Shown here: positions 2,835-46,967 of the stretch, one piece after another
Layout of the letters: each line of letters opens with the position of its first letter
Position numbering within the stretch: position 1 is the first letter of the stretch
NCBI GenBank assembly: GCA_964482695.1
Contig: CAYZYP010000001.1
Span: 4,143 to 68,142, forward strand
DNA length: 64,000 bases
From: an uncultured Gammaproteobacteria bacterium
Lineage (GTDB): Bacteria; Patescibacteriota; Patescibacteriia; Magasanikbacterales; GWA2-37-8
Reading direction: 5' to 3'
Notes under the pieces: generated by a model
The model's input: the letters and a program-made list of their open reading frames with translations, nothing else
Database searches by the model: none
Told to the model about the DNA's origin: nothing
Made by a program: the position numbers and the translations under genes

Positions 2835-4652
2835 ATGATTAAAAAACTATTCAAACTTCACTCCAAATTCCAACCAGCTGGCGACCAACCGCAAGCGATA
2901 GAAAAACTAATTAAAGGTATAGAAAAAGGGGATAGATACCAAACTTTAAAAGGCGTTACCGGTTCTGGAAAAACCTTTACCATGGCTAATGTGATAGCCA
3001 ATTTTGATATGCCGATACTTGTGATGGCGCCAAACAAAGCTTTGGCCGCGCAGTTGTATCGTGAGTATAAAAATTTTTTTCCGGAAAATTCTGTTAATTA
3101 TTTTGTTTCCTATTATGATTATTATCAACCAGAAGCGTATCTCCCTACCAGCGACACTTATATAGACAAAGAAGCGATGATTAACGAAGAAATAGATCGT
3201 TTGCGTCACGAGGCAACTAGCGCCTTGGCCACTAGAAAAGATGTGATAGTGGTAGCATCTGTTTCTTGTATCTATAATCTTGGTTTGCCAGAGAGTTATA
3301 CCGCGTCGTCTTTGCATTTGTGTCTTGGCCAATCAATTACGCGTGGTGATTTAACAAGGCAATTGGTAAAAATTCAATTTGAGCGTACTCCGGGGGCTTT
3401 GAGTCGCGGTAAATTTAGAGTGCGCGGTGATGACTTTGAAATTATGCCGGCAACAGGAGAAGTAATTTATCGGATAAGTTTGAGAGAACAGCAGGTGAAA
3501 GAAATATCCATTGTTAATTCTTTAACCAGAACAGTTAAAGAACAACTTAAAGAAATAATTATTTTTCCGGTAAAACATTTTGTTTCTTCTCAACCACAAA
3601 TTACGCGCGCGATAAAAGATATTAAAAGCGAGCTAAAAGAACGTTTATTATATTTTAAAAAGAAAAAGTTGTATATAGAAGAACAACGTTTAGAAAGGCG
3701 CGCTAGATATGACATGGAGATACTCAAAACATTAGGGTATTGCCATGGTATAGAAAATTATTCGCGCCATTTAACCGGCAAGTTAGCTGGTGAACCGCCA
3801 GAAACATTATTGGCCTATTTTCCTAAAAAAGAATTTCTTACCATCATTGACGAGTCGCACGTTGGTCTGCCGCAAGTGCGTGGTATGTATGAAGGTGATA
3901 AAAGCCGTAAAAATGTTTTGGTAGAATATGGTTGGCGTTTGCCATCGGCTTTAGACAATCGACCGCTTAAATTTAGCGAGTTTGAAGAACGAATTGGCCA
4001 GGTAATTTGTACGACAGCCACACCAGGGATTTTTGAATTAAAAAATTCAGTACAAATTGTAGAGCAAATTATTCGACCAACTGGCTTGATAGATCCACCG
4101 ATAGAAATTAAACCTGTTTTTGATAAAAAGAAAAATCAGGGTCAGATAGAAGATTTAATGAAAGAATTGGAAAAAATTGTTAAAAATAATGAAAGGGCGA
4201 TAGTTAATGTCTTAACCAAAAAAATGGCCGAGGACTTAAATGAATTTTTATTGAAGAAAAATTTTAAAGTTAATTACCTGCATTCAGACGTTAAAACATT
4301 ACAGCGCACGGAAATTATTACCAATTTTCGTAGAGGCAAGTTTAATGTTTTAATTGGCGTAAATTTATTACGCGAAGGTTTGGATTTACCAGAGGTAACA
4401 TTAGTAGCTATTTTAGACGCTGACAGAGAGGGGTTTTTACGTAGTGAATCCGCGCTTATTCAAACTATGGGTCGCACGGCGCGCAATGTTCGTGGCAAAG
4501 TTATTTTATACGCCGATACTATCACCGGCTCCATTAAACGCGCTATGAGTGAGGTTGAAATTCGGCGAAAAAAACAAATGGCTTATAACAAAAAACACGG
4601 CATTACTCCGCGCAGTATAGAAAAGGGGATAGAAGATACGTTTGAAAAATAG
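2835..4652 (+). CDS. uvrB: Excinuclease ABC subunit B (UvrB), short form lacking C-terminal UVR domain
   Basis: GVTGSGKTFTMANVI Walker A, helicase motifs, beta-hairpin region YYDYYQPEAY; 605 aa vs ~670 typical. Confidence 0.9.
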   Translation: MIKKLFKLHSKFQPAGDQPQAIEKLIKGIEKGDRYQTLKGVTGSGKTFTMANVIANFDMPILVMAPNKALAAQLYREYKNFFPENSVNYFVSYYDYYQPEAYLPTSDTYIDKEAMINEEIDRLRHEATSALATRKDVIVVASVSCIYNLGLPESYTASSLHLCLGQSITRGDLTRQLVKIQFERTPGALSRGKFRVRGDDFEIMPATGEVIYRISLREQQVKEISIVNSLTRTVKEQLKEIIIFPVKHFVSSQPQITRAIKDIKSELKERLLYFKKKKLYIEEQRLERRARYDMEILKTLGYCHGIENYSRHLTGKLAGEPPETLLAYFPKKEFLTIIDESHVGLPQVRGMYEGDKSRKNVLVEYGWRLPSALDNRPLKFSEFEERIGQVICTTATPGIFELKNSVQIVEQIIRPTGLIDPPIEIKPVFDKKKNQGQIEDLMKELEKIVKNNERAIVNVLTKKMAEDLNEFLLKKNFKVNYLHSDVKTLQRTEIITNFRRGKFNVLIGVNLLREGLDLPEVTLVAILDADREGFLRSESALIQTMGRTARNVRGKVILYADTITGSIKRAMSEVEIRRKKQMAYNKKHGITPRSIEKGIEDTFEK

Positions 4653-4656
4653 TTTA

Positions 4657-4807
4657 TATTTACATCTTTAATATATTTATTTTTAGACACATAAATTTTT
4701 TCCAGCGAAAAAATTTATTTAAGTGCTCGGCAAAAATCCCGACTTCGTCAGGACCATGCATTTTTGCCTCGCAAACTCTAAAAATAAATATATTAAAGAT
4801 GTAAATA
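4657..4807. mobile_element. MITE-like element copy A: 31-bp perfect terminal inverted repeats (tatttacatctttaatatatttatttttaga) flanking ~89-bp core
   Basis: Left TIR 4657-4687 is exact reverse complement of 4777-4807; core is reverse-complement homolog of 16211-16275. Confidence 0.7.
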
Positions 4808-5221
4808 CTATCTAACTTTTGTTAAATCACCATTAATAATAATTGGTTTAACGGCTTCAATTTCGGTTTTGCAATATGGCATATCGGGAATAGAATTCCA
4901 CATAAATATTTTTTGGTTTAAAACATGGGCAAAGCCAATTTCCATTAAAGTATTACCGCCAACATAGTTTTTAATGTCATTTTTATCAAAGTTTAGAACT
5001 AATACCGCGTCCGCACCTTGCATTTTTTTCCAAAATTCCCGAATAGCGTCTTGATTATTTTTTTGCCGCAGTTTAATTTCTTCAATTTCCGCGTCGTTTT
5101 TACCGATCATCGGTTTGTGCAGGTCGGAAATAAAAGCATCGTGGCCTAGTTTATCTAGTTCATTTTTTACTTCTATCATTTTGTCAGTAAATTGCATCGA
5201 GCCGATTATGCCGATTTTCAT
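4808..5221 (-). CDS. Nucleoside 2-deoxyribosyltransferase / Rcl(DNPH1)-like Rossmann-fold protein
   Basis: 137 aa; MKIGIIGS N-terminus and GADAVLVLNF...GGNTLMEIGFAHVLNQKIFMW resemble the NDT/Rcl family motif (D..G...E.G.A...K). Confidence 0.45.
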   Translation of the reverse strand: MKIGIIGSMQFTDKMIEVKNELDKLGHDAFISDLHKPMIGKNDAEIEEIKLRQKNNQDAIREFWKKMQGADAVLVLNFDKNDIKNYVGGNTLMEIGFAHVLNQKIFMWNSIPDMPYCKTEIEAVKPIIINGDLTKVR

Positions 5222-5234
5222 ATAAATAAGAATT

Positions 5235-5450
5235 TTATTTTAATTCAAAAGTATAAACGACATTAATTATTTGATTTTCGTTTTTTACATCGCAAGAAAC
5301 TTGTTTATTGTTTAATGTGTATCGAAGTAATTTTCCATTAATTTTCACAGTCATAATCTCTTTTTCGGAAAGCGGTATGCCACCTTGCCAATCATATTCT
5401 CCTTTAAAATCTCCATTAATAAAGATTGCTTTGGTATTTTTTTTGATCAT
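5235..5450 (-). CDS. Hypothetical small protein (71 aa), translationally coupled to flanking genes
   Basis: ORF start 2 nt downstream of upstream stop codon; no recognisable motif. Confidence 0.35.
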   Translation of the reverse strand: MIKKNTKAIFINGDFKGEYDWQGGIPLSEKEIMTVKINGKLLRYTLNNKQVSCDVKNENQIINVVYTFELK

Positions 5451-5455
5451 AAATA

Positions 5456-5797
5456 TTAAGGATAAAATTTTAACTCGCAGTTTCCTCCTACCAGTGAATA
5501 TAATATGCTTCGGACAGTCGCGTCTGTTTCTTTGGTTCTTTCGGGTTGTGAGGTTAGTCGATTTTCTCCTACAAGGGGAGGCTTAATCTCAAGACGTTCT
5601 CCTCTATTCATTACCGACCAGCCTTTTCCTAATTTTTCTGTAAATGTAGATTCCCAATCCGCGGGTATACTTGTTGGGTCGGAATACGGACCCAATGGGA
5701 GGTTTTTAATCACATATTCATTCTCATGTCCTCCCAATCCAAATTCAATAGTGATATGTGGTTTTTGTAATTGTTCTTTTCCATTTTCTGTTAACAT
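5456..5797 (-). CDS. Hypothetical protein (113 aa), first gene of minus-strand 3-gene cassette; locally GC-richer
   Basis: ORF only; no family recognised. Confidence 0.35.
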   Translation of the reverse strand: MLTENGKEQLQKPHITIEFGLGGHENEYVIKNLPLGPYSDPTSIPADWESTFTEKLGKGWSVMNRGERLEIKPPLVGENRLTSQPERTKETDATVRSILYSLVGGNCELKFYP

Positions 5798-5886
5798 ATT
5801 GGTTTTTTGAAGATTAATTAAGAAATAATATTATATTTTCGTTTATTATACCACTCCCATACTCAATAAATCAATAAATTTAGGGT

Positions 5887-5915
5887 TTGACTACCACCCC
5901 AACTAATGCTAAATT
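5887..5915 (+). promoter_or_regulatory. Candidate sigma70 promoter for uvrA (TTGACT-17-TAAATT)
   Basis: ttgact accaccccaactaatgc taaatt, 17-nt spacer, ~35 nt upstream of uvrA ORF. Confidence 0.35.
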
Positions 5916-5948
5916 ACCCACATACCCCCCTAGACCGTCAAAAAGCGG

Positions 5949-8467: not shown

Positions 8468-8725
8468 CTATTGATAAATGTCATGAGTACCAATTGAATG
8501 GAAGATAATTATATCATTCTGTCCAAATTCAAAAATAATACGGTATTTGTAACCAATAGAGAATGACCAAAAATTTTTAAGTCGGCCGCTAAGTTTGTGA
8601 GTTTTTAGTGATGGTGCGTGGCAATTTTCACGAAAAATTTGTTCGTTTTCTTCAGCGGTATCTTTAATATTATTAGGCAATTTTTTATACTCCCGAGCAA
8701 ATTTGGGAGTATAGACGATTTTCAT
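8468..8725 (-). CDS. Type II toxin, RelE/ParE superfamily
   Basis: 85 aa; MKIVYTPKFAREYKKL...HKLSGRLKNFWSFSIGYKYRIIFEF..DIIIFHSIGTH pattern typical of RelE/ParE toxins; 3 nt after the antitoxin gene. Confidence 0.7.
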   Translation of the reverse strand: MKIVYTPKFAREYKKLPNNIKDTAEENEQIFRENCHAPSLKTHKLSGRLKNFWSFSIGYKYRIIFEFGQNDIIIFHSIGTHDIYQ

Positions 8726-15548: not shown

Positions 15549-16145
15549 TTACCCTTTTTTCTTATTTTTGTCAACCATTTTCACGGTTCCTAGCCTATTT
15601 TGTATAATTTGCGCTATTTTATCAATAGTTTCCGTTAATTTACCTTCGGAATTAACTATCTGGTATTGAAATTTATCTTTTTTCTTTAATTCTATTTCCG
15701 CTGATTTAAGTCTTGCTCGAAAATCACCCTCGGTCATTTCACCGCGATTTTTAATATGATCCACCATCTGTTCGTAGTTTTCCGGCAGTAAAAAAATAGT
15801 AATACAATTATTTGGGAATTCTTTTATTAATTGTTCCGCGCCCTGCACGTCTATGTTAAAAAGTACCGGGTTTTTTTCCAATAATTTAATAGTTTCTTGC
15901 TTATGCGTGCCATAATAATCGCCATGCACCTTGGCCCATTCCAAAAATTCACCGGCTTTTTGACGCTTGTCAAATTCAGCAGTAGAAATATAGTACATTT
16001 TTTTATCTTCAACAGAATTTTGTCTTGGCCGGCGAGTGGTATAGGTAACACTAGAGCGCAAATTAGAAAAAGCTTTTAACAGCGATTTAGCCACCGTTGT
16101 TTTCCCAACGCCTGCCGGACCGCAGATAATAATTAAATTTTGCAT
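15549..16145 (-). CDS. gmk: Guanylate kinase
   Basis: GPAGVGKTT P-loop, TTRRPR, FLEWAKVHGDYYGT. Confidence 0.85.
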   Translation of the reverse strand: MQNLIIICGPAGVGKTTVAKSLLKAFSNLRSSVTYTTRRPRQNSVEDKKMYYISTAEFDKRQKAGEFLEWAKVHGDYYGTHKQETIKLLEKNPVLFNIDVQGAEQLIKEFPNNCITIFLLPENYEQMVDHIKNRGEMTEGDFRARLKSAEIELKKKDKFQYQIVNSEGKLTETIDKIAQIIQNRLGTVKMVDKNKKKG

Positions 16146-16182
16146 AAAGAGTGTTGAAGTATAAATACCCTTAGTATGTATA

Positions 16183-16327
16183 GTAATCCTTTAATTAAAT
16201 TATTTTTAGAGTTTGCGAGGCAAAAATGCATGGTCCCGACTAAGTTGGGATTTTTGCCGAGCATTTAAGTCAATTTTGCCGCTGGGCGAAATTGACGTGT
16301 CTAAAAATAATTAAACTAAAGGATTAC
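16183..16327. mobile_element. MITE-like element copy B (inverted orientation relative to copy A), TIRs (g)taatcctttaattaaattatttttaga / tctaaaaataattaaactaaaggattac
   Basis: 16211-16275 is reverse complement (few mismatches) of 4721-4790; imperfect ~28-bp TIRs read directly. Confidence 0.65.
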
Positions 16328-16329
16328 GA

Positions 16330-17313
16330 TTAATGCAAGTTTTTTAGAAAGCTCTCTAATTCTAATGGTAGTTCTATGGTAAATTTTTTCTTTTCATTTT
16401 TTAAATTCACAAAACCTAATTGACAACAATGCAAAAATAGCCGCCCGCATTTTTCGTCCCACTTTCGTTTTTGTTTTTTTTGAAAATATAACGGATCGCC
16501 AACTATAGGGTGATTATACGCCAAAAAATGCGTGCGGATTTGGTGCATACGGCCGGTATAGATTTTAACGCGCAAAAGAGTAAAATTCACAAAACGTTTT
16601 TCAACCAAAAATTCTGTTTTAGCTTCACGGCCATCATCCGACGTCAGTCCATCTTTAAGGTAAGGAATAGCCGCCATCCGGTCGCTATTTTTTGTTCTTT
16701 TAATTGGAAAATTAATTTCATCCCAATCTTTATGTATTTTACCGTGAACCAAGACTAAATATTCTTTTTCTATTTCTCTTTTTTTGAATTGTTCTTTTAA
16801 ACACCCAAACATTTTTTGTGTTCGTGCTACTACCAAAAGACCAGACGCTTCCTTGTCTAGACGGTGAACAATGCCAGGGCGTGTTTCCGGATCATCGCCA
16901 ACTTTTTTAATTTCCGGATATTTCTTTGCCAAAACAGAAGCCACACTCATCGATTCGCGAGCCATGGTTGGGTGAGTAAGCAAGCCAGATGGTTTGTTTA
17001 TTACCAGATAATCGTCGGTTTCGGCGACAATGTTTAATTTAGAATATTTAGCAGAGTTGGCAGCCGGCTTGGGCTGTTTAATTGTTTTAGGTAATTTAGG
17101 TTTTTTGATTATCTTAGATAGTATAATTTTGTCGCCATCTTTTATTAAATTACCGGCTTTTTTAGGTTGTTTATCATTAATTGTTATTTGTTTATTATCT
17201 ATCATTTTTCGTACTTGCGAGCGAGAGACGCCTAATTTTTTTGTCAAAAAAATATCCAGCCGTTGATTGGCAAGTGGCGCGGAAACTGTAAATGTGGTCG
17301 TAAGAGAAGTCAT
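16330..17313 (-). CDS. RluA-family 23S rRNA pseudouridine synthase (RluD-like) with N-terminal S4 domain; start taken at MTSLTTTF
   Basis: S4 motif VSRSQVRKMIDNKQITIN, catalytic HRLDKEASGLLVVA. Confidence 0.75.
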   Translation of the reverse strand: MTSLTTTFTVSAPLANQRLDIFLTKKLGVSRSQVRKMIDNKQITINDKQPKKAGNLIKDGDKIILSKIIKKPKLPKTIKQPKPAANSAKYSKLNIVAETDDYLVINKPSGLLTHPTMARESMSVASVLAKKYPEIKKVGDDPETRPGIVHRLDKEASGLLVVARTQKMFGCLKEQFKKREIEKEYLVLVHGKIHKDWDEINFPIKRTKNSDRMAAIPYLKDGLTSDDGREAKTEFLVEKRFVNFTLLRVKIYTGRMHQIRTHFLAYNHPIVGDPLYFQKKQKRKWDEKCGRLFLHCCQLGFVNLKNEKKKFTIELPLELESFLKNLH

Positions 17314-17319
17314 ATATAG

Positions 17320-17393
17320 TGGGCATGGATGGACTCGAACCATCGACATCCACCTTATAAGGGTGGCGCTCTAACCAACTGAGCTACATGCCC
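17320..17393 (-). tRNA. tRNA-Ile with anticodon UAU (reads AUA)
   Basis: Manual fold of reverse complement: acceptor GGGCATG/CATGCCC, D-stem GCTC/GAGC, anticodon stem CCACC/GGTGG with loop CTTATAA, T-arm GATGG-TTCGAGT-CCATC, discriminator A; no encoded CCA. Confidence 0.7.
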
Positions 17394-19590: not shown

Positions 19591-20859
19591 ATGTTAACCT
19601 TGGAATTTGATTACAATTTGCCAAAAGAATTAATTGCCCAAACACCAGCTAGCCCGCGTGATTCTTCGCGTTTGATGGTGGTTGATAGGAATAATCACGA
19701 TATTCAGCATAAACAGTTTAAGGATATTATTCAATATTTATCCAAAGGTGATCTGTTAGTTTGGAATAACACCAAAGTTTTTAAGGCGCGATTACAAGGT
19801 CGGGTTTTATTGGACGAGGAGACGGACAATATTTCTGACAGGCGAGAAAAAAAACTGGGTTTAACGGACAGGATTTTAAACATGCCGGCAATGGAGATTT
19901 TTTTGGTTCGGCCGATGGAAAATTTTGGCGTTTGGAAAGTGTTGGCTAAACCTGGTAGAAAATTACGCTTGGGGATGAAAATAGTTTTTGCCGAGGATTT
20001 TATTTGCGAAGTGATGATTAAAGAAAGCGACGGGACCATTTTGGTTCAATTCAGCGAAGACGACATGAGCGTACGGGCCAAGGCGAATAAGTATGGAAGT
20101 GTGCCTGTGCCGCCATACATTGAATTTGATAGTCGCTCTGTCATCCCGAGGAGGAGGAACGACGACGAGGGATCTCTGTCTGGACAATTGAGACAGAGAT
20201 CCCTCACTTCGTTCGGGATGACAAAAGAGTTGGCAGAACAATATCAAACCGTCTATGCTAAACACGAGGGTTCGGTGGCGGCACCTACCGCTGGCTTTCA
20301 TTTTACACCAGAATTGATAGAACAGTTAAAACAAAAAGGCGTTGAATTCGCCGAAGTAACTTTGCATGTTGGTTTGGGAACTTTTTTACCGGTTAAGACT
20401 GAAAAAGTGGAGGATCATAAAATGCATAGTGAGTGGATAGAATTAACAGCCGCTAACGCGGATAAAATAAATACAGCCAAAGCAGAAGGCAGGCGGGTTA
20501 TAGCAGTTGGTACTACAACAGTGAGGACATTGGAGGGCGTGAATTTATTTTGTCATCCCCGCGAAAGCGGGGATCCAGCCCAAAAGTTACAGACACTGGA
20601 TTCCCGCCTGCGCGGGGATGACAGTCGCGTTTATTACTTAAAACCATATACCGGCGACATTAACATTTTTATTACTCCCGGCTTCAAATTCCAGATTATA
20701 GACGCGCTAGTAACTAATTTTCACTTGCCAAAATCAACTTTAATTATGCTGGTTAGCGCGTTTGTTGGCGACACCAATTTTGTCTCGGATTGTTATCAAA
20801 AAGCGGTAGAAGCTAAATATCGCTTTTATAGTTTTGGAGATGCGATGTTGATTAAATAA
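19591..20859 (+). CDS. queA: S-adenosylmethionine:tRNA ribosyltransferase-isomerase (QueA) carrying two in-frame palindromic insertions
   Basis: MLTLEFDYNLPKELIAQTPASPRDSSRLMVV...; 422 aa vs ~340 typical. Confidence 0.85.
   Translation: MLTLEFDYNLPKELIAQTPASPRDSSRLMVVDRNNHDIQHKQFKDIIQYLSKGDLLVWNNTKVFKARLQGRVLLDEETDNISDRREKKLGLTDRILNMPAMEIFLVRPMENFGVWKVLAKPGRKLRLGMKIVFAEDFICEVMIKESDGTILVQFSEDDMSVRAKANKYGSVPVPPYIEFDSRSVIPRRRNDDEGSLSGQLRQRSLTSFGMTKELAEQYQTVYAKHEGSVAAPTAGFHFTPELIEQLKQKGVEFAEVTLHVGLGTFLPVKTEKVEDHKMHSEWIELTAANADKINTAKAEGRRVIAVGTTTVRTLEGVNLFCHPRESGDPAQKLQTLDSRLRGDDSRVYYLKPYTGDINIFITPGFKFQIIDALVTNFHLPKSTLIMLVSAFVGDTNFVSDCYQKAVEAKYRFYSFGDAMLIK
20139..20223. repeat. In-frame palindromic element 1 inside queA (outer tgtcatcccga/tcgggatgaca, inner gagggatctctgtct/agacagagatccctc)
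   Basis: Nested inverted repeats read directly; GC-rich vs flanking; translated as SVIPRRRNDDEGSLSGQLRQRSLTSFGMT. Confidence 0.7.
20551..20623. repeat. In-frame palindromic element 2 inside queA (perfect 13-bp termini tgtcatccccgcg / cgcggggatgaca)
   Basis: Termini are exact reverse complements; same terminal motif as element 1; translated LFCHPRESGDPAQKLQTLDSRLRGDD. Confidence 0.7.
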
Positions 20860-36084: not shown

Positions 36085-37137
36085 TTATTCAACTTGATAA
36101 TCAGCTGTTTTTAAAGCCTCAATAATTGGTTCTAAATTGCCTTCTAAAACATTGCCAATATTATTCCAACTTTGGTGGATGCGGTGGTCGGTAATTCTGT
36201 CTTGAGGGAAGTTATAAGTACGAATTTTTTCACTGCGATCGCCAGAGCCAATCTGCGCTAGGCGTTTTTTTGTCATTTCTTTTTCTTGTTTCTCTTTTTC
36301 TAGCGCGTACAATCTGGCGCGCAAAACTGCCATGGCTTTTTCTCTGTTAGCGGTTTGCGAACGTTCGTCTTGACACTGCACGATAGTATTAGTTGGTATA
36401 TGAACTATACGAACAGCGGAGTAAGTGGTATTAACACTTTGTCCGCCATGCCCGCCAGCGCAAAAAGTATCAAGACGTAAGTCTTTTGCTTCTATTTTAA
36501 ATTCTGCTTCTTCTATCTCTGGTAAAATGGCCACAGTAACAGTAGAAGTGTGTACGCGGCCGGATTTTTCAGTATCTGGCACTCGTTGCACGCGGTGCAC
36601 GCCCATTTCATATTTTAAATCTTTATTAACATTCTTTCCTTTGATAGAAAAAATAATTTCTTTAAAACCGCCGATGCCAATTTGGTTTGAACTAAGAATA
36701 CGCGTTTTCCAATGTTTGTTTTCCGCGTAACGGCTGTACATGCGGAATAATTCAGCGGCGAACAAAGCCGATTCATCACCACCAGCGCCAGCCCTAATTT
36801 CGACTATAACATCTTTTTTGTCTAGCGGATCTTGCGGGCGATTCATTTCGGATAAAGTTTTTTCTAGATTTTCTTTTTTATCTTTTAATTCCTGTATTTC
36901 TATACTGGCTAATTCACGCATTTGTTCGTCGGTTTCTTTGTCGATAATAATTTGTGTTTCTACACTGGCCTCTTCTATTTTTTTTAATTCTTCAATTTTT
37001 TCTATAATCGGCTGTAATTCGTTGTATTCTTGACCGGTTATTTTTAATTTTTTCGGATCATTAATCACAGCCGGAGTTTGTAAGCTGTTTTCTAGTTCAA
37101 CAAATTTTTGTAATAATTGAGTGTATTTTTGTAGCAT
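36085..37137 (-). CDS. prfA: Peptide chain release factor 1
   Basis: GGQ motif [12 protein letters not shown], PxT-like region. Confidence 0.9.
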
Positions 37138-37159: not shown

Positions 37160-37267
37160 TAGTCTAAGTTATATACTGATTTTTTGTTGTCAATGGAAAC
37201 CCTCGGGAGGGCGACTGAGCGGAGCGAAGGAGTTTTGACAACAGAAAATCAGTATATAACTTAGACT
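37160..37267. repeat. Long hairpin/MITE-like: 34-bp inverted repeat (tagtctaagttatatactgattttttgttgtcaa) with 1 mismatch around a 41-nt GC-rich core
   Basis: Arms 37160-37193 and 37235-37267 reverse complementary; lies between rpmE stop and prfA start. Confidence 0.6.
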
Positions 37268-37906: not shown

Positions 37907-38683
37907 ATGGTCAAGTTACCTACACTTGTCGAGATGCTAAAAGCTGGCGTGCATTTTGGGCACCAGAAGTCGCGTTGGCATCCAAAAATGGAAAAGTTTA
38001 TTTTTACCACGCGCAATAACGTGCATATTATTGATTTAGAAAAAACCTCAGAAGAATTGAACAAAGCTTTGGATTATGTAAAAAATTTAACAAGTAGCGG
38101 CAAAGTAATATTATTTGTCGGTACTAAACACCAAGCCAAAGAATTGATTAAAAACGCCGCGACAAGTTGCGGGGCGCCATATGTAACCGAAAGATGGATT
38201 GGTGGATTGCTCACTAATTTCAACGAAGTTAAAAGACGTCTTAAAAAATATCGTGAATTAAAAGAACAAGTAGCGACAGGCGAGATAGAAAAGTATACTA
38301 AAAAAGAACAAAGCGAATTAAAAAAGAAATTAGAAAAAATGGAAAGGTATTTATCTGGTTTAATAGATCTTAAAGCCATGCCAGATGCTTTGTATATCGC
38401 AGATATGCGGGTAGACAAGACAGCTTTGAGCGAAGCTGCGCGCAAGAAAGTGCCTGTAGTGGCTGTTAGCGACAGTAACACCAATCCAGAAAAAGTTACT
38501 CGCGCTATTCCAGCCAACGACGATGCTGTTAATTCTATAAAAATTATAGTTGATTTAATAGCCGAAGCGGTAAAAGAAGGAAAATTAGAACTAGAGAAAA
38601 AACAGTTAGAAGTTTCTGTTGCCAAAAAGCCGGAAGTAGTTAGAAAAGAACGCAAGGCGCAAAAGAAAGAAGAATCTTTGTAG
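37907..38683 (+). CDS. rpsB: 30S ribosomal protein S2
   Basis: LKAGVHFGHQKSRWHPKM. Confidence 0.9.
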   Translation: MVKLPTLVEMLKAGVHFGHQKSRWHPKMEKFIFTTRNNVHIIDLEKTSEELNKALDYVKNLTSSGKVILFVGTKHQAKELIKNAATSCGAPYVTERWIGGLLTNFNEVKRRLKKYRELKEQVATGEIEKYTKKEQSELKKKLEKMERYLSGLIDLKAMPDALYIADMRVDKTALSEAARKKVPVVAVSDSNTNPEKVTRAIPANDDAVNSIKIIVDLIAEAVKEGKLELEKKQLEVSVAKKPEVVRKERKAQKKEESL

Positions 38684-42908: not shown

Positions 42909-42982
42909 TACGCCTTGCGCCAGCGGAAAATACTTTTGAATCGCGGGCTATCGCCCGCGCTCAAAAAGTATTTTCCGCTGGC
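42909..42982. repeat. Palindromic intergenic repeat, family P1 copy 2
   Basis: Matches 841-919 over ~70 bp with nested inverted repeats. Confidence 0.7.
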
Positions 42983-43018
42983 GTGGCGCGTGAATAATAT
43001 TAGTTTGTTAATAAAGTT

Positions 43019-45585: not shown

Positions 45586-46206
45586 ATGAAATATCAAGAT
45601 TTTAAAAAAATCATAAATAAGCCATATTTTAGCACTTTGGATATTGTTCTCAAAGATATTAATGTATATAATTATCAATTGTCGTTGTGGCAAAAAAAGG
45701 GCTATCTTGGACACTTAAAAAGAGGACTCTATTTTTTTACTGAACAAGAAAATTTGTTTTCAATTCAAGAAATTTCTTTTTTATTGTACGATCCAAGTTA
45801 TATAAGCATGGAATCGGCGTTGAGTTATTATGGAATTATTCCTGAAATGGTGTACGCGCAAACAGCTATTTCAACAAAGACGACTCGAAAATTTTCCAAT
45901 AAATTTGGTCATTTTATATATCGCCACATTAATCCGAGATTATTTTTTGGTTACAACCCGGTTGAACTTTCGTTTGGTAAATATTTGATGGCAGATCCTG
46001 AAAAAGCGTTGCTGGATTACCTGTATCTAAATTTAGGAAAGATTAACGATGAAAATGATATAGTAGAATTAAGAATAAATTGTTTGGAATTAAAGAAAAT
46101 TATTAATATAAAGAAAATTAACGCGTATCTAAGAGAATTTAATATGCGTAAGTTAGAAAGAACAGTTAATAAATTGTTTGAGATATGCTCACATTTGGAC
46201 AATTAA
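45586..46206 (+). CDS. abiEi: AbiEi-family antitoxin/transcriptional regulator (type IV TA / abortive infection)
   Basis: LSLWQKKGYLGHLKRGLYFF and SMESALSYYGIIPE...ADPEKALLDYL resemble AbiEi N- and C-terminal domains. Confidence 0.65.
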   Translation: MKYQDFKKIINKPYFSTLDIVLKDINVYNYQLSLWQKKGYLGHLKRGLYFFTEQENLFSIQEISFLLYDPSYISMESALSYYGIIPEMVYAQTAISTKTTRKFSNKFGHFIYRHINPRLFFGYNPVELSFGKYLMADPEKALLDYLYLNLGKINDENDIVELRINCLELKKIINIKKINAYLREFNMRKLERTVNKLFEICSHLDN

Positions 46207-46967
46207 AAAGATATTATCCAGACAGCGTAAATATTCCGTCAAAAAATTTATTGGTGGAATATTTGCAATATGAAATTCTTGATTCATTGTATAAACAAAA
46301 AGAAAGCGCGTATTTGAGCTTTATTGGTGGAACCGCGATTCGTATCGTGTATGGAGGTAATCGTTTTTCCGAAGATTTGGATTTTGATAATTTTGGTTTA
46401 TCTTTTGCTGATTTTCAACATTTGATGGATAAAATTGTGGAAGACATGAAAATCAAGGGTTTTTTAATGGACGCGCGCTTAGTGCAAAAAGGCGCGTATC
46501 ATTGTTATATTCGTTTTCCACATATTCTGCAAGCCGCTAATTTGAGCGATATAAAAGGGGAAAAAATATTGGTAAGGGTAGATGCTACGTGGAAAGAAAA
46601 AATATTAGAGCCTGTTTTTTATACGCTAAATAGGTTTGATATTTATCGCAATATACTTGTAAATCCGGAAAATATAATTCTTTCTCAAAAAATGATGGCG
46701 ATACTTGGTCGTAAAAGAGAAAAAGGGCGAGATTTTTTTGATGTCAGCTATTTGTACGGGATGACAAAACCAGACTTTTCATATATTGAAAAGATTATGG
46801 GTATTTCTAGAGAGGAATTTGTTGCTAACTTGCTCGCGAAATGCGACGCGTTGGATTTTAAATCTCTCGCGAAAGATGTTGAACCATTTTTAATGAACCC
46901 AGAACAAATTAGCAGGGTATTGGGTTTTAGAGAATTTATTTACGAAATGAGTAAGAGAGGTATTTAA
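46185..46967 (+). CDS. abiEii: AbiEii/AbiGii-family nucleotidyltransferase toxin
   Basis: LSFIGGTAIRIVYGGNRFSEDLDFD matches AbiEii NTase motif; 22-nt overlap with abiEi. Confidence 0.7.
   Translation: MLTFGQLKRYYPDSVNIPSKNLLVEYLQYEILDSLYKQKESAYLSFIGGTAIRIVYGGNRFSEDLDFDNFGLSFADFQHLMDKIVEDMKIKGFLMDARLVQKGAYHCYIRFPHILQAANLSDIKGEKILVRVDATWKEKILEPVFYTLNRFDIYRNILVNPENIILSQKMMAILGRKREKGRDFFDVSYLYGMTKPDFSYIEKIMGISREEFVANLLAKCDALDFKSLAKDVEPFLMNPEQISRVLGFREFIYEMSKRGI

Follow-up and report, generated by a model that had tools for sequence, protein, structure and literature searches.

A probable MITE-like palindromic insertion element with a branched fold at two gene ends of a groundwater Patescibacteria genome

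What kind of sequence is a 151-nt inverted repeat that occurs twice, in opposite orientations, directly behind the stop codons of unrelated genes? The question is raised by a stretch of 64,000 nucleotides, which we analysed as a whole and refer to as the window. Its source is a Patescibacteria genome from groundwater metagenomes, and the relatives identified by their Gmk proteins are labelled Magasanikbacteria. We consider the repeat probably to be a non-autonomous MITE-like palindromic insertion element, residing in a groundwater Patescibacteria genome related to Magasanikbacteria. The two copies, here called A and B, and their parts are placed as follows.

4657..4807, minus strand: copy A, the 151-nt element; the minus strand is the better-folding one, and the copy scores 164.5 bits with model R1
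4657..4687, minus strand: arm of the outer stem of copy A (the 3′ arm on the minus strand), pairing perfectly with 4777-4807
4777..4807, minus strand: the other arm of that stem (the 5′ arm on the minus strand), adjoining the stop codon 4808-4810 of a 137-aa ORF
4724..4773, minus strand: hairpin P2 of copy A, with a tandem GA/GA internal loop, an AUGCAUG bulge, an apical 8-bp stem and a GAA triloop
4691..4718, minus strand: hairpin P3 of copy A, a 12-bp stem with a GCUG loop, in which four pairs are changed on both sides relative to copy B
16180..16330, plus strand: copy B, the 151-nt element; the plus strand is the better-folding one, and the copy scores 170.2 bits with model R1
16180..16210, plus strand: 5′ arm of the outer stem of copy B, pairing with 16300-16330 with 3 mismatches in 31 positions
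16300..16330, plus strand: 3′ arm of the outer stem of copy B, the last base of which is the last base of the rluD stop codon
16214..16263, plus strand: hairpin P2 of copy B, belonging to the conserved block
16269..16296, plus strand: hairpin P3 of copy B, a covarying stem with the conserved GCUG loop

Based on the letters of the window alone, an earlier note had described copy A as an element with perfect 31-bp terminal inverted repeats around a core of ~89 bp. Our inverted-repeat check agrees: the 31-nt arms at 4657-4687 and 4777-4807 are 100% complementary and enclose 89 nt, within a weaker extended inverted repeat that spans 4645-4819. Inside the core, where the note had reported palindromes, ATAAATTTTTTC/GAAAAAATTTAT forms one at 4691-4718. 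The note had also reported an inverted second copy with slightly diverged terminal repeats. Such a copy is present, with arms that are 90% complementary and again 89 nt apart; its extents needed revision, since the copy covers 16180-16330 and not 16183-16327, and the core 16211-16299 and not 16211-16275.

Read on opposite strands, the minus strand of copy A and the plus strand of copy B align without gaps over all 151 nt, while BLASTN reports 85.7% identity over 133 nt. The copies lie 11.5 kb apart and are the only two in ~74 kb of this genome. Within the window, a 22-mer of the core is found at copies A and B only (0 expected in shuffled sequence), and a window scan with 17-mers of the core was likewise restricted to the two copies. 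The element is AT-rich, with a GC content of 27-34%. Its sole ORF encodes 33 aa in copy A, whereas in copy B a stop codon cuts it off after 5 codons; we rejected a small protein gene on the ground that this ORF is not conserved between the copies, so that the repeated, inverted-repeat element which the earlier note had placed at gene ends is also non-coding. Because the element is carried by independent JGI and ENA assemblies that are 99.99% identical, it is no assembly artefact.

Both copies are predicted to adopt an identical three-way junction, made of an AT-rich outer stem of ~31 bp and the hairpins P2 and P3. In P2, a 3-bp base is followed by the tandem GA/GA internal loop, a 7-bp stem, the AUGCAUG bulge and the apical 8-bp stem with its triloop; P3 consists of a 12-bp stem and the GCUG loop. 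RNA folding, a check that the earlier note had proposed, gives energies far beyond those of shuffled controls for both copies. The minus strand of copy A and the plus strand of copy B fold at -66.2 and -67.4 kcal/mol, and their opposite strands at -57.2 and -56.0 kcal/mol; z-scores for all four strands range from -10.7 to -12.4, and none of 200 shuffles folds equally well. The A(-)/B(+) strand is thus better by 9-11 kcal/mol with RNA parameters and by 3.5-4.6 kcal/mol with DNA parameters, which reproduce the same architecture and the same strand bias. This bias is due to G-U pairs on A(-)/B(+), where the pair cells include 5 G-U as against 1 A-C.

Of the 151 aligned positions, 33 differ between the copies, 31 of them in paired columns. 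In twelve pairs both partners have been replaced without loss of standard pairing. Standard pairs fill 97.5% of all pair cells, and none of 500 shuffles reaches any of the five measures that we used. When the differences are placed at random, a count of 13 doubly changed pairs is never obtained in 100,000 placements (P < 1e-5). Judged from the sequences, the compensatory evolution is unusually clean for a comparison of only two copies, and the folded shape is unusually well preserved.

The differences are also unevenly spread along the element. Identity between the copies is 50% in the distal 20 bp of the outer stem and 68% in P3, compared to 100% in the proximal 11 bp of the stem (TTATTTTTAGA / TCTAAAAATAA) and 93% in the junctions and P2. 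Put as two blocks, there are 4 differences in 83 nt of the conserved block versus 29 in 68 nt of the variable block (Fisher p = 1.6e-8). Poorly matched as they are between copies (50%), the two arms of each copy remain 95-100% complementary to each other over their distal 20 bp. From the covariation, the concentration of differences in paired columns and the uneven identity, it follows that the fold is under selection, or that it is homogenised within each copy. One block, comprising the proximal stem, the junctions and P2, is constrained in its very sequence and almost invariant. The distal termini are not conserved, which is atypical of terminal inverted repeats bound by a transposase, and the pattern as a whole points to selection on the fold.

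A unit of ~150 nt stands at two unrelated housekeeping loci, in opposite orientations and behind intact native stops. Its neighbours are housekeeping genes (uvrB, uvrA, uvrC, rplS, gmk and rluD). Copy A is flanked by a convergent gene pair, with the uvrB stop codon at 4650-4652 and that of the 137-aa ORF at 4808-4810. Copy B separates the rluD stop from the gmk start and runs antisense to the two genes; the rluD stop codon at 16330-16332 overlaps the last arm base of copy B by 1 nt, and the gmk ATG at 16145 is 34 nt from the copy. These stop coordinates agree with the observation, made before, that both copies sit exactly at gene boundaries, namely at the stop of the 137-aa gene (4808-5221) and at that of rluD. 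RluD, UvrB and the 137-aa protein all retain their native lengths, and therefore each copy lies just behind an intact stop codon. The C-terminus of RluD (…FLKNLH*), for example, is as long here as in relatives, which places copy B immediately behind the native stop codon.

Neither site is occupied in relatives. The gene order rluD-gmk-rplS is kept in four relatives (L144, L148, L145 and L146/L147; Gmk identity 88%, 87%, 83% and 75%, respectively), in which the gap between rluD and gmk measures -4 nt, 34 nt, 20 nt and 6 nt, compared to 184 nt in the window. Subtracting the gap of L148 from that of the window leaves 150 nt, that is, the size of the element. The nearest relatives by uvrB (UvrB 77-78% identical) have no room for copy A: uvrA follows uvrB after 23 nt in L132, and an unrelated convergent gene follows after 3 nt in L133-135. 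The genes upstream of uvrA in L144 and L146 were rejected as uvrB candidates, as they are not uvrB. The length of 137 aa is shared by homologues of the gene beside copy A (100% coverage), and in other genomes the next gene follows within 4-52 nt, with the element absent.

The lack of room at the uvrB loci of relatives and the element-free homologues of the 137-aa gene argue that both copies are lineage-specific insertions, and the empty sites argue that the element is an inserted MITE-like repeat. Mobility, or at the least insertion, is demonstrated by the empty sites. The counter-reading named in the earlier note, that relatives would carry the same sequence as conserved intergenic DNA, fails at both loci, since the rluD-gmk junction is empty in the four relatives and the nearest uvrB loci have no room. 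We also considered whether the element could be part of a mobile unit of the 137-aa gene, and rejected this because the gene occurs elsewhere without it.

The 137-aa gene (4808-5221, minus strand) deserves a description of its own. It encodes no Pfam domain and has more than 2,700 homologues, which form a plateau at 76-83% full-length identity. Its hosts include many CPR phyla, DPANN archaea (Woesearchaeota and Pacearchaeota) and a MAG labelled Marinimicrobia, and many of the homologues lie on very short contigs. Taken together it looks like a highly conserved, horizontally spreading small gene whose function is predicted by no domain. The uvrB-uvrA spacer in which it lies (4653-5948) is a variable spot: it measures 1.3 kb in the window, where it holds copy A, the 137-aa gene and two small ORFs, and 23 nt in L132, and it contains an unrelated 121-aa gene in L133-135. 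The 137-aa gene is absent from this spacer in the nearest relatives; the 121-aa gene of L133 was tried as its orthologue and rejected for lack of any similarity.

We searched for further copies with model R1 in ~1.46 Mb of Patescibacteria DNA and in ~10 kb of extra flanks of the same genome. No third copy was found in the ~74 kb of this genome, and no homologue in 80 Patescibacteria uvrC loci, the nearest-relative uvrB loci, the gmk relatives or the loci with the 137-aa gene; the weak matches lack the core and are ordinary hairpins, apart from an unrelated branched one. Exact-pattern scans gave 0 matches in GTDB representative genomes and 48 loci in JGI metagenomes, all attributable to chance in a collection that evidently lacks the source sample. 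The matches in viral contigs are also all chance, and BLASTN found no match in plasmids. With Rfam 15 at gathering thresholds, only a tRNA-Ile was found in the window and nothing at the element, and permissive scans of both copies returned only spurious long-hairpin miRNA matches far below threshold. This tRNA-Ile (17319-17393, minus strand) has a TAT (UAU) anticodon, an uncommon way of decoding AUA in bacteria. It lies immediately upstream of rluD, and the listed start of the rluD ORF overlaps it.

The description of the element as a non-autonomous terminal-inverted-repeat element holds in part: the inverted repeats and the empty sites bear it out, while the termini are only 50% identical and no transposase is encoded in the window. 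The search for a cognate transposase thus came back empty over the window, as it did for an integrase and a reverse transcriptase. The target-site duplications that were to be sought at the empty sites could not be defined either, as no direct repeat consistently flanks both copies. The target duplication of Correia elements is TA. The TA/TA that ends copy A on both sides forms a palindrome by itself and is inseparable from the arms. The exact ends are ambiguous, with ATAGTA/TACTAT in common at one boundary. The suggestion that the copies supply terminators is plausible as a generic hairpin effect, whereas a terminator scan found no canonical site with a GC stem and a U-tract at either copy. 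A promoter scan at the element did not rise above chance, and an independent promoter within it was rejected accordingly.

Several other known kinds of element were tried and rejected. A hammerhead ribozyme was discarded because CUGACGA in copy A is CCGACUA in copy B and because there is no Rfam match. The differences between the copies are not adenine-specific and both copies are intergenic, which rules against a DGR TR/VR pair. The neighbours (uvrB, the 137-aa gene, rluD and gmk) and the lack of a reverse transcriptase in the window speak against a retron msr-msd RNA.

Four other explanations have to be weighed against an inserted MITE-like repeat, and two of them start from the RNA-like or structural character of the conservation. 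The copies could be two paralogues of a stand-alone structured sRNA gene, transcribed from A(-)/B(+), with P2 and the junctions binding a protein or a target and with new sites reached via gene duplication or transfer and not by transposition. Invariant loops and junctions beside covarying helices are what such a gene would display, the strand bias (5 G-U cells versus 1 A-C, with A(-)/B(+) folding better) fits it, and, read that way round, both copies have 5-6 consecutive T a few bases beyond the stem. These T-runs, which lie 7-9 nt beyond the AT-rich outer stem, are the antisense of the native Lys codons that end uvrB and rluD; for this reason they belong to the target sequence and not to the element, and we rejected them as its own terminator. 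An exact placement at stop codons of two unrelated loci is typical of small insertion elements, and no promoter above chance, no Rfam family and no homologue in the 1.46 Mb of related Patescibacteria DNA lend themselves to an sRNA gene. A perfect 31-bp duplex is also unusual for a bacterial sRNA and would be a substrate of RNase III. An sRNA gene is unlikely on this balance, and we hold it to be quite as unlikely, or slightly more so, that the element is mobile in a structure-specific way, with folded ssDNA or RNA recognised by an HUH/Y1-type or other hairpin-binding enzyme instead of terminal repeats served by a DDE transposase. In that case the distal stem could vary freely, or intrastrand templating could rebuild it, which would account for distal 20 bp that are 50% identical between copies and 95-100% complementary within them, next to a proximal 11 bp and a P2 that are nearly invariant. 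P3 covaries too, a feature for which an end-binding transposase cannot account, and the folds are stable with DNA parameters as well. IS200/IS605 ends carry subterminal hairpins without a long terminal inverted repeat, and REPs are typically GC-rich; both look different from the element, no candidate enzyme is encoded in the window, and divergence of sub-families combined with selection on an RNA hairpin explains the two-copy data equally well.

Two further explanations do without either an sRNA gene or a hairpin-binding enzyme. That the sequence is a locally evolved cis-regulatory or terminator hairpin that was never mobile agrees with its position at gene ends, including the convergent pair at copy A; the same 151-nt layout at two unrelated loci, the emptiness of both sites in relatives and the lack of any canonical terminator scored there make this very improbable. 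Hardly any weight can be given to the last one, in which the element closes a gene cassette at its 3′ end as an integron attC site. Copy A does adjoin a small, widespread gene in a variable spacer, and attC sites conserve structure more than sequence. Nonetheless, copy A has an outer stem paired perfectly over 31 bp, with neither an unpaired spacer nor extrahelical bases, the element is conserved at its centre, the very part that varies in attC, the window holds neither an array nor an integrase, the copies are inverted and 11.5 kb apart among housekeeping genes, and the 137-aa gene occurs elsewhere without the element. There is, finally, a rather unlikely broader reading, in which the element is a structure-specified mobile unit of a kind undescribed in Patescibacteria, either a mobile structured sRNA gene or a hairpin-recognised ssDNA element, and not a degenerate IS. 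The proximal stem, junctions and P2 may in that case be the recognition module of an enzyme or an RNA-binding protein, with the distal stem and P3 free or re-templated at each copying.

We return to the preferred reading, a MITE-like insertion element. In common with prokaryotic MITEs, the element is shorter than ~500 bp without a conserved ORF, has terminal inverted repeats and is missing from the corresponding sites of relatives; it departs from them in the distal 20 bp of its arms, which are 50% identical, and in the lack of a transposase in the window. By analogy, the closest architectures are those of the bcr1 repeat of Bacillus and the Correia elements of Neisseria. The group A repeat bcr1 of the Bacillus cereus group is ~155 bp long, non-coding and of a distribution not conserved between relatives, and its ends pair to close two independent stem-loops, a structure maintained by compensatory base changes (PMC3184786). 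The likeness to our element lies in the described size and structure, as 151 nt and paired ends that close two stem-loops with compensatory changes are found here too. Found only in the B. cereus group, bcr1 is present in 11-130 copies per genome, and its mobility has been linked to a TTTAT motif or to 5-bp direct repeats (PMC3184786). Here, by contrast, there are 2 copies in ~74 kb of a genome from a different phylum, and a single TTTAT (4653-4657) stands beside copy A, while neither the opposite side of copy A nor copy B has one.

Correia/NEMIS elements and MITEs such as QMITE2 of Coxiella are ~100-200 bp long, AT-rich and intergenic, often at gene ends, with terminal inverted repeats of ~23-29 bp, and their transcripts form very stable stem-loops (PMC10969869; PMC3184786); QMITE2 is flanked by direct repeats of 7-9 bp (PMC10969869). 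The element resembles them in size, inverted repeats, AT-richness and location at gene ends. However, they have conserved termini, defined duplications and many copies, as opposed to 50% identical distal termini and 2 copies in ~74 kb. ERIC/RUP and SPRITE elements share the size, the inverted repeats, the AT-richness, the gene-end location and the stable transcripts, and they too have conserved termini and defined duplications (PMC10969869; PMC3184786). Interspersed palindromic repeats with a bias to the 3′ ends of genes, including convergent ones, are known, and roles at the RNA level have been suggested for them (PMC10969869; PMC3184786). Compared to these, our element has no canonical terminator motif and forms a three-way junction, not a simple hairpin. 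REP/RAYT-associated palindromes, in the account that we cite, are 20-40 bp long with a GTAG or CGTC tag (PMC3733652), unlike an element of 151 nt that is branched and has 27-34% GC.

How might such an element have arrived, and what would it do? We propose that an enzyme encoded elsewhere in the genome copied it into both sites, and that the invariant block would be the part recognised by this copying enzyme or by a host factor. The fold would form in single-stranded nucleic acid, either a transcript or ssDNA. Once inserted, the element would be transcribed within the neighbouring mRNAs, and the transcripts would then carry a hairpin of about -56 to -67 kcal/mol, which would end those of uvrB and the 137-aa gene and stand between rluD and gmk. 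Such a hairpin could act as a 3′-end barrier against exonucleases or read-through, as a stabiliser or as a site of processing by an enzyme such as RNase III, and at the rluD-gmk junction it could uncouple two formerly overlapping genes. We infer that the most likely consequence is a generic one, namely a co-transcribed stable hairpin at gene ends.

A MITE-like repeat is an ordinary kind of element, and this one is notable mainly for its host phylum and for its clean compensatory evolution. Descriptions of interspersed palindromic insertion elements are scarce for the small and streamlined genomes of Patescibacteria (CPR), and our literature search returned nothing relevant on them in this group. 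At the rluD-gmk junction, the recent insertion of a very stable hairpin would have split two formerly overlapping genes, and the case would illustrate, in nature, how a small mobile element can rewire an operon. With compensatory evolution this strong between only two copies, the element is a candidate for asking what is selected, an RNA fold or a DNA recognition structure. On the practical side, repeats of this kind can interrupt metagenome assemblies, and they can be taken for RNA genes by mistake.

The window also contains other repeats. A GC-rich double palindrome, TGTCATCCCCGCGAAAGCGGGGATCCAG / CTGGATTCCCGCCTGCGCGGGGATGACA, occupies 20551-20623 (plus strand) inside a queA-like ORF (19591-20859) and is translated in frame as …CHPRESGDPAQKLQTLDSRLRGDD…; this putative in-frame palindromic insertion is reminiscent of the Rickettsia palindromic elements. 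Two GC-rich long-stem hairpins, at 850-919 and 42918-42983, have the arm CGCCAGCGGAAAA(G/T)ACTTTT… in common and are both intergenic between co-directional genes, forming a second small family of palindromic repeats unrelated to the 151-nt element. Another inverted repeat, at 37161-37267, consists of 33-nt arms of 97% complementarity on either side of a 41-nt spacer; it sits just upstream of where a prfA-like gene (36085-37137, minus strand) starts, and ~640 nt before rpsB, which starts at 37907.

Several independent JGI and ENA contigs start or end within a few bases of ~2043-2049, in an ABC-transporter ATPase gene, which suggests a repeat or a strain-variable junction that breaks assemblies. 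Finally, two toxin genes were noted in the window: a ParE/HigB-like toxin with a 71-aa partner (8468-8725, minus strand) between uvrA and uvrC, and an AbiEii-type toxin gene (46185-46967, plus strand) inside a glycosyltransferase cluster.
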